A stretch of DNA of 64,000 bases, taken from NCBI GenBank assembly GCA_029821755.1, contig JALGSV010000002.1, positions 180,797 to 244,796 on the forward strand. The letters run 5' to 3'. The position numbers were made by a program, and so were the translations under genes. Each line of letters starts with the position of its first letter. Position 1 is the first letter of the stretch. Source of the stretch: Candidatus Zipacnadum vermilionense. GTDB lineage: Bacteria; Armatimonadota; Zipacnadia; Zipacnadales; Zipacnadaceae. Below the pieces are notes generated by a model. The model was not told the DNA's origin. It searched no databases and saw nothing but the letters and a program-made list of their open reading frames with translations. This document shows positions 12,465 through 44,456 of the stretch, piece by piece.

Positions 12465-12820
12465 CTCACCCCCTGCCCCCTCTCCCTCGCTACGCTCGGG
12501 AGGAGGGGGTTCCGAGGGGGAGACGCGCCGCCCTTGCCCCCGATAACCCGGAATGCTCCAACACCGCCGGAGGCGACCACGTTGGGTCGCCCCTACCTGT
12601 CAGGAGGTTCGGTCAGTGGCCCTTGGGGACGGATGCCGGTGCCCCCGGCGACGGGGTAGGGCGGGGAGGGCAGACCACAGTGCGGGCCACCCTGGCACCG
12701 GCGAGACGCTGGTGCCACCGGGAGCAGACCACAGTTCCAGCCACCGCCGGGCGGCACTGAAGTGCCGCCCCTACCGAGCGCGTCCCCTTCCACCTCTCGC
12801 TTCTCGCCTCCCGCCTCTAT
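12465..12820. repeat. Composite cluster of several REP-like palindrome types between convergent genes
   Basis: CCTCACCCCC-type at 12465, CTAC-ended hairpins at 12572-12596 and 12749-12774, GGCACCGGCGAGACG-type at 12693-12724, heptamer run near 12793-12820. Confidence 0.75.
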
Positions 12821-21765: not shown

Positions 21766-21811
21766 GAAGGCGCCGGGACCGGTGGGGTCCGGAGGCCCAG
21801 GAGAATACACT

Positions 21812-23122
21812 ATGGAACTTGACAACGTGCTTTCCGCACTCGGTCTGACCAGTTTTGGCGAGGCTCTCGCTAGGGAAGCGGACGCCGCCCAAGCGGCGCT
21901 GCCCGCGGGGGGGCCGTTCTTCCTCAAGCCCGGCTTCGTGGCGGAGGCCTGCCGGGCGTCGTTCCTGCCGGCGGAGCCAAGGGCGGCGGCGCTGGAAGGG
22001 GCGAAGCGGATCGCCGCTGATCCAGCGCGGGCGACGCTGACCTGGTACTTCTACTGGTGCCTGTGGGAGAGCCCGAGCTTTCCCGTAGGCGAGCAGGCGC
22101 GGTGGCCACGGCTGGACCAGGTCCCGGCAGAGCTGGTCGGCGACCTGGCGATGATGTACCTGCTGGCGATGATCGCGCGCTATCCCGAGATGGAAGAGTT
22201 ACACCGGGCATACGGGGTGGAGGCGGCCATCGCCGAGCACACGCTGCTGGATATTCAACTGGGAGGCTGGACCGCGCTGCACGAGCAGTGCGGATGCTGG
22301 GGGCTAGACGTGCCGCGGCTGCACTGGCTGCAGTACCACTTCCGGGGGGAGATCTACCGGCTGGGGCGCTTGCAGTTCCAGTACGGCAAGTTCGGCGGGA
22401 AGCTGCGCATGTACCAGCATCGGGAGACAGGGAAGGTACTGGCGCTGTCGGAGAGCGGGGTGCAGTACCTAGAGGACGGGAGACTGTGGAGCGAGACCCG
22501 GGAGGCGAAGAAGTACTGGACGGCGGAGCTGGGGACTTCGAGCGGACAGAGCGACGACCCCTCCTGCGCCCTGCGCGGGGCCACGGTTACCGGCCACCCG
22601 ATTACGGTGCAGGGCGTGGCGCGGCGGGAGCCGGTGGAGTTGGTGTGCGCCGACTGGTGGCAAGTGCTGGAGCCGGGCGACCCGGTGCTACACATACACA
22701 TCCCGGTGGGTGGGCCGATGGACCACGGGGAGTGCGGGGAGTCGATGCGCTGGGCGGCGGAGTGGTTTCCGGAGCACTTCCCGGAGTGGCCCTTCCTGGC
22801 CTACTGCTGTGATTCGTGGCTGCTGGATACGCAGCTTCAGGAATTCCTGCCGCCGGAGTCGAACATCGCGCGGTTCCAGCGGGAGATGTACCTCTTCCCC
22901 ACCATTCGAGGCGACGAAAACCTGCGGGGACCAATCTTCCACTGCGTGCCGGAGTTCACGGCGGCAATGCCCCGCAAGACGGCGCTCCAGCGGGCGCTGG
23001 CGGAGTACCTCGAAGCGGGGAATAAGCTGCGGGCGAGCGCCGGCGGGAGCATCATCCTGGCGGAGGATTTGGACTGGGGCGGGGAGGTGTATCTGAAGGG
23101 GAAGGCGGCGGCGCTCGGATAG
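21812..23122 (+). CDS. Acyltransferase/GNAT-like protein (DUF5596 type)
   Basis: YRLGRLQF, LHIHIP.GGP, C.SWLLD..L, SNI.RFQ motifs. Confidence 0.75.
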   Translation: MELDNVLSALGLTSFGEALAREADAAQAALPAGGPFFLKPGFVAEACRASFLPAEPRAAALEGAKRIAADPARATLTWYFYWCLWESPSFPVGEQARWPRLDQVPAELVGDLAMMYLLAMIARYPEMEELHRAYGVEAAIAEHTLLDIQLGGWTALHEQCGCWGLDVPRLHWLQYHFRGEIYRLGRLQFQYGKFGGKLRMYQHRETGKVLALSESGVQYLEDGRLWSETREAKKYWTAELGTSSGQSDDPSCALRGATVTGHPITVQGVARREPVELVCADWWQVLEPGDPVLHIHIPVGGPMDHGECGESMRWAAEWFPEHFPEWPFLAYCCDSWLLDTQLQEFLPPESNIARFQREMYLFPTIRGDENLRGPIFHCVPEFTAAMPRKTALQRALAEYLEAGNKLRASAGGSIILAEDLDWGGEVYLKGKAAALG

Positions 23123-23304
23123 GGATCCCGACCCCTGCCCAGGAACCAGCCATACCTTCGGCTGGGTGAGCAGGACCCGGAACCGCGGCCCAAGGTGCAG
23201 GACGCCTACGGGCGCTGCTCCAGGGCGGCGGTGGGGGGGGCGCGGGATCAAGTACCTGCCGGACCAGGCGCCGGCGGATAGCGCAGTGCCAGCCGCCCAG
23301 CCGC

Positions 23305-23334
23305 GCACCGGCGAGACGCCGGTACCACAGGGAG
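23305..23334 (+). repeat. Family B palindrome (GCACCGGCGAGACGCCGGT...) whose tail overlaps the SD of the downstream gene
   Basis: gcaccggcgagacgccggtaccacagggag; GGAGG at 23331-23335, ATG at 23342. Confidence 0.8.
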
Positions 23335-23341
23335 GACCCTC

Positions 23342-25324
23342 ATGGCAGATGAACTTCGTGCCCCCGCCGAGCGGCGGGTAGGGGTGGTGAATACCTCGCG
23401 TAGCCCCCACGCCCGGCTGCGCTCAGTGCCACTCGCGGCGGTGAAGCTGGGCGACGGCTTCTGGCGGCCGCGGCTGCAGGCCAATGCTGGCGTGGGCATG
23501 CCCACCTTCTACCGCGACATGGAGAGCCACGGCGTGGTGGACAATCTCCGGCGTCTGTCGGGGCGCAAGCAGGTGGACTACCAGAACGGCGGCTACGCTA
23601 GCGAGTCGGACCTGTACAAGTGGCTGGAGGCCGTCGGCTACGTCTTGCAGAGCGGCGAAGCCCCGGAACTGCGCGCCCTGGCCGAGGCCACCATCGACGA
23701 TATCGCGGCGGCCCAGGGCGAGGACGGCTACCTCTATGCGCGCACCGCCGTCGGCGGCGACCCCAACTACGAGCGCTTCAGCCGGCTGCAAGACTCCCAT
23801 GAGCTATACTGCGCCGGGCATCTGATGCAGGCAGGGGTGGCCTACTGGCGGGCGACGGGCGACGCGGAACTCCTGGGGGTGGCTACGAGGTTTGCTGATT
23901 ACCTCTGCGAGACCTTCGGGCCGAGGAAGCTGGAGACCGCCGACGGGCATCCGGAGGCGGAACTGGCGCTGGTGGAGCTGTACCGGGCGACCGGGGAGCG
24001 GCGGTACCTGGACCTGGCGGGGTTCTTCCTGACCCAACGGCAGTCGGTGGAGGACCTCTCCCCCATCGCTGAGCGGCAGGCGCTGGCCGGTCATGCGGTG
24101 CGGTCGGGGTACCTGTGCTCGGGCGGCACGGACTGGTACCTGGAGACCGGCGACGCGGCGATGCTGGAGAACCTGGAGCGGCTGTGGCAGGAGCTGGTGG
24201 CAGGGAAGATCTACCTCACCGGTGGCGTGGGGGCGCGGTTTGCGGGGGAGTCGTTCGGGGAGCCGTATGAACTGCCCAACGCGCGGGCGTATGCCGAGAC
24301 CTGTGCGGCGATTGCCCATGCCATGTGGGCCTGGCGGATGCTCCTGGCCACCGGCGAGGCCCAGTATGCCGACTGGCTGGAGACGATCCTGTACAACGGC
24401 TTCCTCTCCGGCGTGTCACTGGACGGGGGCGAGTACTTCTACATGAACCCCCTGACTGCCGGCGGAGGCTACGCGCGGCAGCCCTGGTTTGGCTGCAACT
24501 GCTGCCCGCCGAACATCCACCGGACGCTGGCCTCCCTCCCCGGCTACCTCTTCACCACCAGCGAGGAGGGGCTGTGGGTACACCTGTACGACGCCTGCGA
24601 GGCGCTGGTGACACTGCCGGACCACACGAGCGTGCGGGTGGAGGTGCGAACGAAGTACCCGTGGAAGGGGAGGGTGGAGATCGTGGTGACGCCGGCGGTG
24701 GCGACCGAGTTTACGCTGTTCCTGCGGATTCCCGCGTGGGCGGAGGGGGCGCGGGTGGAGATGCAGAGGGAACCGAGCACCGGCGAGACGCCGGTGCCAC
24801 CGGGAGAGTACCTGCCGCTCCACCGGCGCTGGGCGCCGGGGGACGTGGTGCGGCTGGAAATGCCCTTGCCGGTGCGGTTGACGGAGAGCCATCCACGGGT
24901 GGTGGAGAACCGCTGCGCAGTGGCGCTGCAGCGCGGGCCGCTGGTGTATTGCCTGGAGGGGACGGACAACCCAACTGACTCGCTGCCCGACCTGGCCCTG
25001 ACGGCGGTGGAGGGAGATCCCGAGGGCGGGTTCGGCGCGGAGGCGCAGTCGCTGCTCCTGCGGGGAGTGACCATCCTACGCGGGCCGGGGATGTCCGTCT
25101 GCGCGCCCGGCGCGGCTGGGGAGCACACGCCGCTATACCGGCCGTGGCGCAGCGGCCCGCCCGTCGCGCACCATCCTCTGACGGTGACCGCTATCCCCTA
25201 CTACGCCTGGGGCAACCGCGGGAGCGATGAGCTGGAGGTATGGATCCCGGTGACGGAGGGAGCCGCGGCGACCGCGGTTTCCCGCACTCTGACCCAACAT
25301 CACGAGGAGGACCATGGACACTGA
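23342..25324 (+). CDS. GH127 beta-L-arabinofuranosidase-family glycoside hydrolase
   Basis: SDLYKWLEA, HELYCAGH, GHAVR, AYAETCAAI, WFGCNCCPPN, IPYYAWGNR. Confidence 0.93.
   Translation: MADELRAPAERRVGVVNTSRSPHARLRSVPLAAVKLGDGFWRPRLQANAGVGMPTFYRDMESHGVVDNLRRLSGRKQVDYQNGGYASESDLYKWLEAVGYVLQSGEAPELRALAEATIDDIAAAQGEDGYLYARTAVGGDPNYERFSRLQDSHELYCAGHLMQAGVAYWRATGDAELLGVATRFADYLCETFGPRKLETADGHPEAELALVELYRATGERRYLDLAGFFLTQRQSVEDLSPIAERQALAGHAVRSGYLCSGGTDWYLETGDAAMLENLERLWQELVAGKIYLTGGVGARFAGESFGEPYELPNARAYAETCAAIAHAMWAWRMLLATGEAQYADWLETILYNGFLSGVSLDGGEYFYMNPLTAGGGYARQPWFGCNCCPPNIHRTLASLPGYLFTTSEEGLWVHLYDACEALVTLPDHTSVRVEVRTKYPWKGRVEIVVTPAVATEFTLFLRIPAWAEGARVEMQREPSTGETPVPPGEYLPLHRRWAPGDVVRLEMPLPVRLTESHPRVVENRCAVALQRGPLVYCLEGTDNPTDSLPDLALTAVEGDPEGGFGAEAQSLLLRGVTILRGPGMSVCAPGAAGEHTPLYRPWRSGPPVAHHPLTVTAIPYYAWGNRGSDELEVWIPVTEGAAATAVSRTLTQHHEEDHGH
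24777..24806 (+). repeat. Family B palindrome in frame within the first GH127 (reads STGETPVPPG)
   Basis: gcaccggcgagacgccggtgccaccgggag. Confidence 0.85.
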
Positions 25325-27167
25325 ACTGACCCCGTACAAAGTAGACCCGACCTGCGAGCCCACCCCGGCCGGCAGCCGCTTTGCCTTGGGAGGCGTGGTG
25401 GGGGATTGGCTGGACACGGTAGTGGAGAACTGGCTGCTGCCCTTCCCCCGAGCCAATCCGGCGATGACGCAGATGTTCCGGGACCGCGATAGGCGACCGG
25501 TGCGGAAGTTGCTGCAGTGGTCCGGGGAGTTCGCCGGAAAGTACCTGCTGGGGGCCCTGCACGTCTGGGAACTTACCGGGGATGAGCGGCTGCGGCAGAC
25601 AATCCAGGGGATGATCGAGGAGCTGGTGACTGCGCAGGGGCCGGATGGGTACCTGGGGCCGTTTCCGCCCGAGGCGCGGTTGACAGGGGATAACTGGGAC
25701 CTCTGGGGGCACTACCACACGGCATTTGCGCTGCTGCGCCACTACGCGCTGACCGGTGAGGAGAGGTCACTGGAGGCGGCCGTCCGCGCCGCCGACTTGC
25801 TTTGCGCCACCTTCGGCCCCGGCCGCGCGCGGATCCTCCACCAACAGCAGATGAACATGGGGCTGGTCCACGGCCTCGCCCTGCTCTACCGCTACGTACC
25901 CAAGCCGGAATACCTGGCGACCGCCCGGTGGATCGTGGAAGACTCGGACATTCCCGGCGGGGTGCAGTTCATGCGGGCGGCGCGGCAGGGGAAGGAGTTG
26001 TTCGAGTTCGGAAACATCGCCAACCGCTGGGAAATCCTGCATTTCACGCAGGGCCTGGTGGAGCTGTACTGGCTCACCGGTGCAACCGAGTACCGCGACA
26101 CTTTCCTGCGCGTGTGGGACAGCATCCGTCGCCTGGACCGGCACAACACCGGAGGCTTCTCTACCGGCGAGAGGGCGGTGGGGACGCCTTACATGCTCCC
26201 CGGGGAGGACAAACCGAACTGGCCCAACATCTGGCAGCGCTGCATCGAGACCTGCTGCACGGTGGCCTGGAACGCGCTGAGCGTGGACATGCTCCGACTG
26301 AGCGGCGACTCCACGGTGGCTGACGAGATCGAGCTGACGCTGTACAACTCGGCGCAGGGCTCCATGCACCCCTCGGGGCGCGCCTGGACGTACAACACGC
26401 CCATGCGGGGCTGGCGCCTCTCCTCCGCCGATCAGATCAGCGCTCACGCGCATCCGGGCGGGCCGGAGCTGAACTGCTGCAACGCCAACGCCCCGCGGCC
26501 GCTGGGGATGATCCGCGACTGGGCGCTCATGACGAGCGCGGAGGGGCTGACGCTCAACCACTACGGGGCGGGGGTGCTGGAGGCGCCGCTGGCGGACGGC
26601 GGGCAAGTACGGCTGGAGCAGGAGACGGAGTACCCGCTGGAGGGGGCGATATTGCTGCGCGTCACGCCGGACCAGCCGCGAAAGTTCACGTTGCGCCTGC
26701 GGATACCGTCGTGGTCGCGAGAAACGAAGGTGGAGGTAACCGGCGAGCCAAGCACCGGCGAGACGCCGGTGCCACCGGGAGCGTACCTGTCCCTCCGACG
26801 CCAGTGGCAGGCGGGAGACACCGTGGAGATCAGCCTGGACTTCTCACCGCGCTACTGGGCGGGGCGGGAGGAGTGCGCGGGCATGGTGGCTTTGTACCGG
26901 GGGCCGCTGCTACTAGCCTGGGACCAGCGGTTTACCGAGTTCGACGAGGCCGACCTGCCGGCCGTGGACGCGAGCGCGCTGCGCCTGGAGCGGATCGAGA
27001 GCGACGGGCCTGGGCCCCGGCCGCTGCTGCTGGTGCGGGTGGGAAAAGGGCCCTTAGTGCTGTGTGACTTTGCCAGCGCGGGCGGAGCGGGCAATCCCTA
27101 TACCTCGTGGCTGCCGGCGGTCAACGCCGATCCGGAGTGCGAGGGGCCCTTTGCGCGGAGCGAGTAG
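25314..27167 (+). CDS. Second GH127/GH146-like glycoside hydrolase
   Basis: GEFAGKYL, TGGFSTGE, ETCCTV.W, NCCNAN, LRIPSW, RGPLLL. Confidence 0.85.
   Translation: MDTELTPYKVDPTCEPTPAGSRFALGGVVGDWLDTVVENWLLPFPRANPAMTQMFRDRDRRPVRKLLQWSGEFAGKYLLGALHVWELTGDERLRQTIQGMIEELVTAQGPDGYLGPFPPEARLTGDNWDLWGHYHTAFALLRHYALTGEERSLEAAVRAADLLCATFGPGRARILHQQQMNMGLVHGLALLYRYVPKPEYLATARWIVEDSDIPGGVQFMRAARQGKELFEFGNIANRWEILHFTQGLVELYWLTGATEYRDTFLRVWDSIRRLDRHNTGGFSTGERAVGTPYMLPGEDKPNWPNIWQRCIETCCTVAWNALSVDMLRLSGDSTVADEIELTLYNSAQGSMHPSGRAWTYNTPMRGWRLSSADQISAHAHPGGPELNCCNANAPRPLGMIRDWALMTSAEGLTLNHYGAGVLEAPLADGGQVRLEQETEYPLEGAILLRVTPDQPRKFTLRLRIPSWSRETKVEVTGEPSTGETPVPPGAYLSLRRQWQAGDTVEISLDFSPRYWAGREECAGMVALYRGPLLLAWDQRFTEFDEADLPAVDASALRLERIESDGPGPRPLLLVRVGKGPLVLCDFASAGGAGNPYTSWLPAVNADPECEGPFARSE
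26752..26781 (+). repeat. Family B palindrome in frame within the second GH127 (reads STGETPVPPG)
   Basis: gcaccggcgagacgccggtgccaccgggag, identical to 24777-24806. Confidence 0.85.
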
Positions 27168-27172
27168 GGAAC

Positions 27173-27225
27173 CTCACCCCCTACGCTCTCTTTCTCGCTG
27201 CGCTCGGGCGAGGGGATTCGAAGAG
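27173..27225. repeat. CCTCACCCCC...GAGGGG-type REP-like element
   Basis: Similar to 12465-12506 and 49537-49578. Confidence 0.6.
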
Positions 27226-27292
27226 GAGGAACGGTTCTCGCAGTGCGTAGCGAGGGCGCGCTAATGACAAAGTAGAAGAGTAGGGAGGCAAG

Positions 27293-28057
27293 ATGATGTC
27301 CAACGTCCGTTATCACGAGATGCTGCCGTTTGAGATCGTCGCCGCGCGGGAGGCCTGTCCGCTGGCGTTTGTGCCGCTGGGGGGAATTGAGTGGCACGGG
27401 GAGCACCTGGCGGTGGGAAACGATGCGCTGAAGGCGGAGATGCTGGCGGTGCGGTGCGCCGAGGCGCGCGGGGGCCTGGCTTTTCCGCCGGTGTGGTGGG
27501 GCGAGCCGCGGGAAGCGTACCTGATGGATGCCAACGCCGCCGACCGGGAGCAGATCAACGAGAAGATGGGCCTGCCGCCGGAGAACTTCGCGCCGGGGTA
27601 CATGGGGCGGAGCGTGCATGACACGGACCGCGCCTACATCGAGCTGCTGCTGCATGTCTGCCGGCAACTGCGGAGCCTGGGGTTTCGGGTGGTCACGCTG
27701 ATCGCCGGACACTACCCCATCCGCCACCAGGCGCAGGCCGCGGCGGAGTGGTTCAACGTGTCGGAGCGGGGGCGGGCGCAGGCCTGGGCCTGCTCGGGGT
27801 ATGAGCTAGTGCACGGGGAGATACCCCTGGCCGGGGACCACGCCGGGCGCTGGGAGACCTCGCTACTCATGGCGCTGCGGCCGGAGTGCGTGGACTTGAA
27901 CCGGCTGCCGGCAGACCCGGAGGCCCCGCTGATCGGCGCGTCCGGCGGAGAGCGCCACCCGGCGGAGGCGGACGCGGAATGGGGCGAGGCCGGAGTGCGA
28001 GCGGTGGTGGCGGCGATCAATGCGCGGGCGCACGAGCTCATCACCGGTCTCGCGTGA
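27293..28057 (+). CDS. Creatininase/creatinine amidohydrolase family protein
   Basis: GGIEWHGEHL..GND, GHYP, DHAGRWETS. Confidence 0.9.
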   Translation: MMSNVRYHEMLPFEIVAAREACPLAFVPLGGIEWHGEHLAVGNDALKAEMLAVRCAEARGGLAFPPVWWGEPREAYLMDANAADREQINEKMGLPPENFAPGYMGRSVHDTDRAYIELLLHVCRQLRSLGFRVVTLIAGHYPIRHQAQAAAEWFNVSERGRAQAWACSGYELVHGEIPLAGDHAGRWETSLLMALRPECVDLNRLPADPEAPLIGASGGERHPAEADAEWGEAGVRAVVAAINARAHELITGLA

Positions 28058-28186
28058 ACCTTGCGGGCAGTGACCGGGTCAGTATACCGACGCCCCGGGG
28101 GAGCCTCGCCCCCTGCTCCCTCTTGGTCACGCTGGGCGTGCCCCTGGCAGGAGAGGGGGAACCAGAACAGCCACGGAGGGTAGACC

Positions 28187-32397: not shown

Positions 32398-32407
32398 GGG
32401 GGATTTT

Positions 32408-32434
32408 CCGGTGGCACCGGCGTCTCGCCGGTGC
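32408..32434 (-). repeat. Family B palindrome
   Basis: ccggtggcaccggcgtctcgccggtgc. Confidence 0.8.
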
Positions 32435-44389: not shown

Positions 44390-44400
44390 GCGCCGGCCTC

Positions 44401-44456
44401 CCCGGTGGCACCGGCGTCTCGCCGGTGCTCCGCGTGGGGCGGGCTTCCAGCCCGCC
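44401..44456. repeat. Family B palindrome plus GTGGGGCGGGC-ttcca-GCCCGCC REP-like element between convergent genes
   Basis: Direct reading. Confidence 0.8.

Follow-up and report, generated by a model that had tools for sequence, protein, structure and literature searches.

Two neighbouring genes of one bacterial genome carry the same translated palindrome at homologous codons. The genes, here called A and B, code for diverged proteins of glycoside hydrolase family GH127. They are located in a window of 64,000 nucleotides (nt) from Candidatus Zipacnadum vermilionense (contig JALGSV010000002.1, positions 180,797 to 244,796 of the forward strand); all coordinates without a contig name refer to this window. 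The palindrome is a unit of a dispersed family of repetitive extragenic palindromes (REPs) which we name REP1. In both genes it occupies a single loop, where it has replaced codons and was not simply added to them. The copy in A is old and common to a clade of related lineages; the copy in B is younger. For its arrival in B we favour, with modest confidence, a short templated copy from A which required hardly any flanking homology.

One palindrome in two GH127 genes

The genes and all REP1 units of the window are the following:
23342 to 25324, + strand: gene A, GH127 (beta-L-arabinofuranosidase-like), 660 amino acids (aa), three domains; open reading frame (ORF) with Pfam PF07944, PF20736 and PF20737
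25314 to 27167, + strand: gene B, a diverged GH127 paralog, 617 aa; ORF with Pfam PF07944 and PF20736
24776 to 24806, + strand: REP1 unit in gene A, residues 479-488, STGETPVPPG; exact match, the old copy
26751 to 26781, + strand: REP1 unit in gene B, read STGETPVPPG; exact match, the younger copy
12695 to 12724, + strand: intergenic REP1, pattern match with 1 mismatch
23305 to 23334, + strand: intergenic REP1 just upstream of gene A, pattern match with 2 mismatches
32405 to 32434, - strand: intergenic REP1, pattern match with 2 mismatches
44399 to 44428, - strand: intergenic REP1, pattern match with 2 mismatches

The 30-mer GCACCGGCGAGACGCCGGTGCCACCGGGAG has two exact matches in the window, 24777-24806 and 26752-26781, both on the + strand. 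When up to 3 mismatches are allowed six matches are found, with 0.00 expected from 100 shuffles, and the remaining four are all positioned between long ORFs. The true identity of A and B comprises 31 nt (24776-24806 = 26751-26781), followed by one mismatch and then by GTACCTG. Both exact copies are in frame and are read as EPSTGETPVPPG(E/A)YL, after (L)RIPxW and before RxWxxGD. Outside of this stretch the two genes have little in common. A and B share 30% of their amino acids and 51% of the aligned bases, and the REP1 stretch is the sole aligned run of identity of at least 11 nt. An initial annotation of this DNA had reported an identical 30-bp palindrome in frame in two otherwise highly diverged GH127 genes, with its peptide between LRIPxW and RxWxxGD in both proteins. 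All of this is borne out, and the identity is one nucleotide longer. The four extra copies which it had listed are indeed intergenic; for three of them the coordinates were off by 2-3 nt and are corrected above to 12695, 32405 and 44399.

According to Pfam, gene A comprises the GH127 catalytic, middle and C domains, gene B the catalytic and middle domains. The start of B overlaps the end of A by 11 nt, and the A-B tandem is kept in the related contigs L040, L043 and L044. The AlphaFold2 (AF2) model of gene A has a predicted local distance difference test score (pLDDT) of 90. Its best matches in the PDB by Foldseek are 6ex6, 4qjy and 3wkw (TM 0.82-0.85), which are solved GH127 enzymes; this, too, shows gene A to be a GH127 protein. 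E319, C321, C387 and C388, i.e., the E-x-C and CC motifs, are invariant in an alignment of 54 sequences, and gene B keeps IETCC and LNCCN. We take these residues to have the zinc-binding and catalytic roles of their counterparts in HypBA1. Thus the attributes of the family are present: a catalytic (alpha/alpha)6 domain plus beta-sandwich domains, and the Glu-x-Cys and Cys-Cys motifs.

The shared stretch itself has the attributes of a REP. The genome to which the window belongs (G000) is a draft of 4.39 Mb and 115 contigs, similar to a metagenome-assembled genome, with 66% GC and a completeness of 95%; the window is on contig C38. The whole genome has 19 exact copies of the 27-nt core GCACCGGCGAGACGCCGGTGCCACCGG; when up to 4 mismatches are allowed there are 115, distributed over both strands and many contigs. 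The unit has a 9-bp stem (GCACCGGCG/CGCCGGTGC) closed by an AGA loop, and the stem is immediately followed on its 3' side by a conserved CCAC. On the opposite strand the CCAC tail is a GTGG head, which fits the GT[AG]G tag of REPs. The unit's 5' flank is commonly GGGGA or CCACCCC, its 3' flank GGGAGG. In 50-nt contexts the minimum free energy of the hairpin is -23 to -24 kcal/mol. A short GC-rich palindrome, many dispersed and mostly intergenic copies, and a GT[AG]G tag are found together. The 31-nt stretch is a unit of a REP family.

What happened to the loop is evident from the orthologs of both genes in 40 related genomes and in metagenomes. All these orthologs have the segment RIPxW(8-9 aa)VNGEPxxxxxxPGxYLxLxRxWxxGD. 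Between W and YL there are 23 residues in A as well as in B; the nearest REP-free orthologs have 21 residues in the case of A and 19 in the case of B (20 in more distant B orthologs). As the loop is also there in REP-free orthologs, where it lacks only 2 aa in the case of A and 4 aa in the case of B, the REP replaced loop codons. REP1 takes the place of 18-24 nt (6-8 codons) in A and of 12-19 nt in B, which results in a net gain of 2 and 4 aa, respectively, and the adjoining GAG CCN and TAC CTG codons are retained. The initial annotation had thought of a selfish palindrome inserted in frame. A REP-type element read in frame is what we find; the simple insertion has to be abandoned in favour of a replacement of 6-8 codons. 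In the AF2 model of gene A residues 479-488 form a coil which links two strands of the middle beta-sandwich, 471-474 and 489-497, with a pLDDT of about 80 vs. 96-98 on both sides. The model thereby agrees with the loop position which had been supposed for the peptide.

Two simpler views of the stretch were considered and rejected. A plain insertion is ruled out because REP-free orthologs all have the loop at nearly equal length. A conserved GH127 motif is ruled out because distant homologs have unrelated residues and codons at the loop; an occasional E-PVP-G similarity, as in G005 and G017, is seen without the REP nucleotide signature. The peptide STGETPVPPG, the conservation of which in distant GH127 proteins would have spoken against a REP origin, is absent from such proteins and from repeat-free genomes.

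An observation on the same loop may be added. P0012, a homolog of A, has 14 extra residues, ALPQPGDRERSLPAATAQ, at this position. This points to a general tolerance of the GH127 loop for insertions.

Age of the two copies

Homologs of A which carry the unit were obtained from metagenome sequences and are 74-81% identical to A. Their loops are listed with the mismatches counted in the 27-mer:
P0004: loop STGETPVPPG, 1 mismatch
P0003: loop YTGETPVLPG, 4 mismatches
P0006: loop GAGGTPVRPG, 3 mismatches, stem kept through a G.U pair
P0005: loop SPRETPAFPG, 7 mismatches
P0007: loop AIGESPP-PG, further decayed, mismatches not counted
P0008: loop LGGEQPVTPG, further decayed, mismatches not counted

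Thus REP1 is present in the same register in six A orthologs, P0003 to P0008, in a graded series of decay which ranges from 1 to more than 7 substitutions. In a maximum-likelihood tree the REP1-bearing orthologs and the A gene of the window form one clade (SH-aLRT 98). The REP1-free A orthologs, P0010 and those of the congeners G001, G002 (identical with P0011) and G003, are placed outside of it. A further ortholog, P0009, is nested within the clade as the sister of P0004 (support 99). The codons in question are occupied in P0009 by a stretch of 43 nt, GGGGAGCCTCACCCCCTGCCCCCTCTCCTTGCAGGAGAGGGGG (contig L045, 1430-1480), which is the consensus of another REP family of G000, REP2. Because P0009 is nested in the REP1 clade and nevertheless bears REP2 at the same codons, REP1 was replaced by REP2 in this lineage.

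A different picture emerges for B. The B orthologs P0124, P0122 and P0123 are positioned directly downstream of P0004, P0006 and P0007, respectively, and are 73-80% identical to B. None of them has a REP in the loop, e.g., VNGEPVSAQAGTYL. P0125 and more distant B orthologs are also without REP1. The A copy is common to the clade and the B orthologs on the same contigs are free of REPs; therefore, the A copy is ancestral and the B copy came later. We infer from these comparisons that the A copy goes back to the common ancestor of the clade and that the B copy arose on the branch leading to G000. Degenerate pattern scans of public metagenome and genome contigs for further REP-bearing GH127 loops gave no matches.

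Has the element been preserved for a purpose? The stem is retained in G000, P0004 and P0006 and lost in P0003, P0005, P0007 and P0008. At third positions the REP codons are identical in 8/10, 7/10, 10/10 and 8/10 cases vs. 0.55-0.66 gene-wide, which is a small excess. With the stem lost in four lineages and a weak synonymous conservation these data provide no convincing evidence for selection on the hairpin or for a function of either hairpin or peptide. The REP peptide is probably a neutral passenger of a surface loop without functional gain, and the consequence of REP1 for the GH127 enzymes is probably slight.

The route into gene B

How did B come into possession of the unit? We assign a chance a little above even to a brief copying event in which A served as the template for B, with hardly any homology involved. 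The sequence of events would be as follows. In the ancestor of the clade, as the phylogeny indicates, a REP1 sequence took the place of 6-8 codons in the gene A loop which joins two strands. This copy was then inherited, decayed in most lineages and was exchanged for REP2 in one. Later, in the lineage of G000, the same 31 nt would have appeared at the homologous codons of B, 1975 bp downstream, which is the least certain step. Template switching or patch conversion from A, possibly provoked by the hairpin, may have brought it there.

Several observations argue for a copy from A. Frame, orientation and register are identical in both genes, and both loops end up at 23 residues from different starting lengths of 21 and 19. 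With A as a template identical frame, register and final loop length arise automatically. Further, the bases which adjoin the core are common to A and B (A at -1, GAG at +1 to +3), and both features are present in just 1 of 17 other exact copies. The putative donor is the tandem paralog, 1975 bp upstream of the B copy. An identical tract of 31 nt in paralogs of 51% identity, with an older donor and a younger recipient, is what is expected from a conversion.

A number of points weigh on the other side. There is no flanking run of A/B identity of at least 11 nt and no second conversion patch. In view of the missing flanking identity a classical RecA-type conversion is implausible. The stretch of identity corresponds to the REP unit itself, and no distinguishing flank bases of A have moved with it (CCG and GAG in A vs. 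CCA and GCG in B). Elsewhere in the genome, at position 28843 of contig C83, an unrelated REP1 copy matches B over 33 nt vs. 31 nt for A. The same loop took REP2 in P0009, i.e., the site can be struck or re-templated repeatedly. The ends of the ancestral loop (GAG CCN ... CCG GGN) resemble REP1 flanks and could steer independent events to the same junctions. Finally, the age of the B copy is bounded only loosely; for P0003 and P0008, which represent the two closest lineages, the available contigs (L042 and L047) end short of the B loop. The lack of donor-flank transfer and of homology weakens a classical conversion; it leaves a template switch at microhomologies unweakened. A longer conversion between A and B was considered as well and is ruled out, as there is no other run of at least 11 nt, and in three relatives no run shared by the A/B pair exceeds 16 nt.

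The strongest competitor, to which we concede a distinctly smaller chance, is an independent acquisition of REP1 by B through the mobility of the family itself, either RAYT-mediated (by REP-associated tyrosine transposases) or guided by microhomology, with the loop as a preferred and/or a permissive site. Besides the C83 copy, the REP2 event and the resemblance of the loop ends it can draw on the hypervariable length of the loop, as seen in P0012, on the about 12% of REP1 copies which are translated in other genes, and on the fact that A/B identity ends at the REP boundaries. In addition, different REPs have been reported at a single site of Xanthomonas recB (PMC3733652). What it has to explain is considerable. 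The newcomer must have hit A's frame, orientation and junctions and must have reached A's final loop length despite 19 vs. 21 starting residues. For an untargeted strike the chance to meet the homologous codons of a paralog is tiny, and neither a target-site signature of REP1 nor a cognate RAYT was found in the genome analyses presented below. The initial annotation had offered either two targeted insertions or a short conversion. Of these a copy from A to B is now the likelier, though not decisively so.

Closely related, and in our opinion of slightly lower probability still, is the notion that the loop of the GH127 middle domain is a landing pad or exchange site into which REPs are written repeatedly by a REP-specific, homology-independent mechanism. 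Candidates are template switching primed by the hairpin and integration by a RAYT at a target resembling GAGCC...CCGGG. Three events would fit, i.e., REP1 in the ancestor of the A clade, the swap to REP2 in one lineage, and REP1 in B. If it were true, the locus would be a natural and datable series of REP integration and replacement in vivo, and it would show a route by which REPs remodel protein loops across paralogs.

An ongoing homogenisation, in which both copies are held to a master sequence by REP-to-REP conversion and in which the direction could even be from B to A, appears improbable. It would account for the A copy, which matches the consensus at 30/30 positions in spite of the decay of its orthologous copies; the somewhat elevated third-position identity of the REP codons and the replacement of REP1 by REP2 in P0009 can be quoted in its support. 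Yet it leaves unexplained how a REP-free B acquired its first REP. The sample amounts to only 10 codons, P0004 is near-perfect without such an assumption, and the hairpin is lost in P0003, P0005, P0007 and P0008. That the shared stretch is not genuine at all is a very small risk. A draft of 115 contigs invites the suspicion of an assembly artefact at a repeat. But each copy has flanks which on either side align in frame with the orthologs of the gene concerned, A or B, the A copy is present in independent assemblies of relatives, and a 30-nt repeat is too short for misjoins which keep the flanks. The other version of this doubt, an ancestral GH127 motif, is contradicted by distant GH127 proteins that have neither the motif nor its nucleotide signature.

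REP1 beyond the GH127 locus and its relation to known systems

With up to 2 mismatches, REP1 copies number 89 in G000, 97 in G002 and 6 in G003; G001 has none, and the other 37 relatives have 0-1 each. By these counts REP1 is confined to the genus. Some copies in G000 and G002 are arranged as inverted pairs, 46-58 nt apart, and both GH127 copies and many others are singlets. A k-mer census of G000 uncovered at least 5 further hairpin families of 24-174 copies each, and these sister families bear GTGG or GTAG heads. In the window, the copy at 23305 ends in GGGAGGA about 6 nt ahead of the ATG of gene A at 23342. Here the tail of the REP supplies a Shine-Dalgarno-like sequence. Several further genomic copies of REP1 are similarly placed ahead of start codons.

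Four intact ORFs of G000 match the RAYT model NCBIfam NF047646, two above the cut-off and two just below. All four carry HUH and Y..NP motifs:
C22:120-656 (C22a): flanked by a further GGTGGGGCAGGC hairpin, with three 39-nt tandem repeats alongside
C22:1992-2537 (C22b): flanked by REP4
C71:182680-183183: bracketed by inverted REP3 pairs (REPINs)
C75:52074-53060: flanked by a REP2-like hairpin

The two genes on C22 are within 2.5 kb of one another. A RAYT gene flanked by REP1 was sought in the 95%-complete draft of G000 and in G001-G003, and none was found; in G002 one REP1 unit is near a RAYT gene and outside that gene's own flanking hairpins. A transposase flanked by the palindrome had been suggested as worth looking for. 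RAYT genes are indeed there, and none of those in G000 has REP1 at its borders. A target-site signature for REP1 was not found in these genomes.

Read directly from the sequence, none of the six reading frames of the REP1 core (0/6) contains a stop. A copy that falls in frame into a tolerant loop can thus be kept as a translated passenger. The genome-wide count and the in-frame fraction, which the initial annotation had called for, are 115 copies and 14 of them in open frames with both flanks scoring as coding. Besides the GH127 pair at least 10 REP1 copies are translated within genuine genes. Hosts other than the GH127 genes, all confirmed by Pfam, are:
G000 C21:71957-74530 (L063): MutS2, with an insert of about 30 aa which contains a REP1 unit (GGTGVSPV) inside the ATPase domain V; the Pfam match breaks there
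G000 C26:73889-74017 (L064): UvrD-like helicase/PD-(D/E)XK nuclease, with three tandem in-frame REP1 units in the linker between UvrD_C and PD-(D/E)XK
G000 C69:75820-76968 (L066/L075): Zn-dependent alcohol dehydrogenase, with REP1 in a loop of ADH_N (GroES-like domain)
G000 C61:6550-8922 (L074): RecQ-HRDC ORF, the frame of which crosses REP1-derived sequence (GETPAVPGG...STGETPVPLE) into a DUF559 domain
MnmG: Pfam-confirmed host, REP1 in the C-terminal domain
PMT_2 glycosyltransferase, GH2-like protein and GDSL hydrolase: Pfam-confirmed hosts

In the helicase-nuclease the units have a period of 51 nt and read AGVSPV... three times. The RecQ part of the frame on C61 comprises DEAD, Helicase_C, RecQ_Zn_bind and two HRDC domains; the whole may be a gene fusion or a read-through permitted by the stop-free REP. 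The REP1 unit of the alcohol dehydrogenase is at the same place in the ortholog from G002 (C4:40722-41804, L076), so this copy predates the split of G000 and G002. The dehydrogenase of G001 is free of REPs and its loop is about as long, so a pattern resembling replacement is seen outside GH127 too. Two homologous proteins from an unknown family each have REP1 as well: C74:50391-52370 (PVAPASRRYG, aa 533) and C85:17025-19433 (STGETPVPPG, aa 104). Unlike in the GH127 pair, positions and frames of their units differ.

The frames are used unevenly. The peptides and the number of loci at which each is read are:
TGETPVPP: 7 loci
GGTGVSPV: 4 loci
PVAPASRR: 2 loci
HRRxAGATG: 1 locus
APARRRCHR and RWHRRLAG (rich in Arg, Cys and Trp): 0 loci
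Such an exclusive use of the mild frames fits a selective filter on the peptides which a protein tolerates.

A few observations concern the neighbourhood of genes A and B. Upstream of A there is a NAT_N/GNAT_C gene (21782-23122) in which the 142-position GNAT_C profile spans 231 residues; this suggests an internal insert in the GNAT_C region. The orthologous gene on the contig of P0004 has an inverted REP4 pair inside (L040, 2237-2302). A polysaccharide deacetylase gene precedes GH127-A in L040, L043 and L044; it is missing at this place of the window (23123-23341). Downstream, a creatininase-family gene (27293-28057) is located between gene B and a flavodoxin gene, a synteny unlike that of the relatives (region 27168-28186).

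REP/REPIN-RAYT systems are reportedly the subject of work by Nunvar in 2010 and by Bertels and Rainey in 2011. REP1 is like the GT[AG]G REPs in being short, tagged, GC-rich and of high copy number, in its mostly intergenic location, in partly forming inverted doublets, and in the presence of RAYT genes in the same genome. It differs from REP-RAYT systems in that no RAYT flanked by REP1 was found in the assembly of G000. As with GT[AG]G REPs a minority of the copies is in frame in known genes, often those of DNA repair; for REP1 these are MutS2, the UvrD-like helicase and RecQ. Intragenic GTAG-type REPs and their enrichment in repair genes were described by Di Nocera, De Gregorio and Rocco (2013; PMC3733652), who also report two uvrA paralogs of Opitutus terrae which carry REPs at different sites (PMC3733652).

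Another resemblance is to the Rickettsia palindromic elements (RPEs; Ogata et al., 2000, 2002), which the passages on them in PMC3733652 and PMC10969869 present as selfish palindromes that last in frame in surface-exposed parts of proteins, which they leave intact. RPEs have 100-150 bp, code for 30-50 aa and reside in obligate intracellular Rickettsia; REP1 has 30 nt, codes for 10 aa and resides in a free-living lineage of Armatimonadota. REP1 is outside the RPE family, its classic analogue in function, and the likeness goes no further than function. Gene conversion as the way in which REPs evolve was proposed by Higgins et al. (1988), a proposal which enters here as a reference in PMC3733652. 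The GH127 pair is like an ectopic conversion of paralogs in having an identical short tract in linked genes with a phylogenetically older donor and a newer recipient. It is unlike the usual conversion because the tract has 31 nt and the flanks are 51-65% identical, far below the needs of homologous recombination. With flanks this divergent a microhomology- or hairpin-driven template switch would be needed.

In-frame REPs are thus already documented, mostly as isolated snapshots. Unlike the described intragenic REPs, REP1 is present at homologous codons of two tandem paralogs, where it replaces loop codons, and its orthologous decay series and a swap of the REP type at one codon position can be traced across species. 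What the GH127 locus adds is the same unit at homologous codons of tandem paralogs of 30% identity and a codon-by-codon record of REP decay across at least 7 related lineages, together with the REP1-to-REP2 swap. As a natural experiment, if a small one, it speaks to the way in which REPs get into coding sequences, be it by replacement of codons or by insertion. Equally, it bears on how long translated REPs last and on their mode of spread, through mobility of their own or through templated copying.

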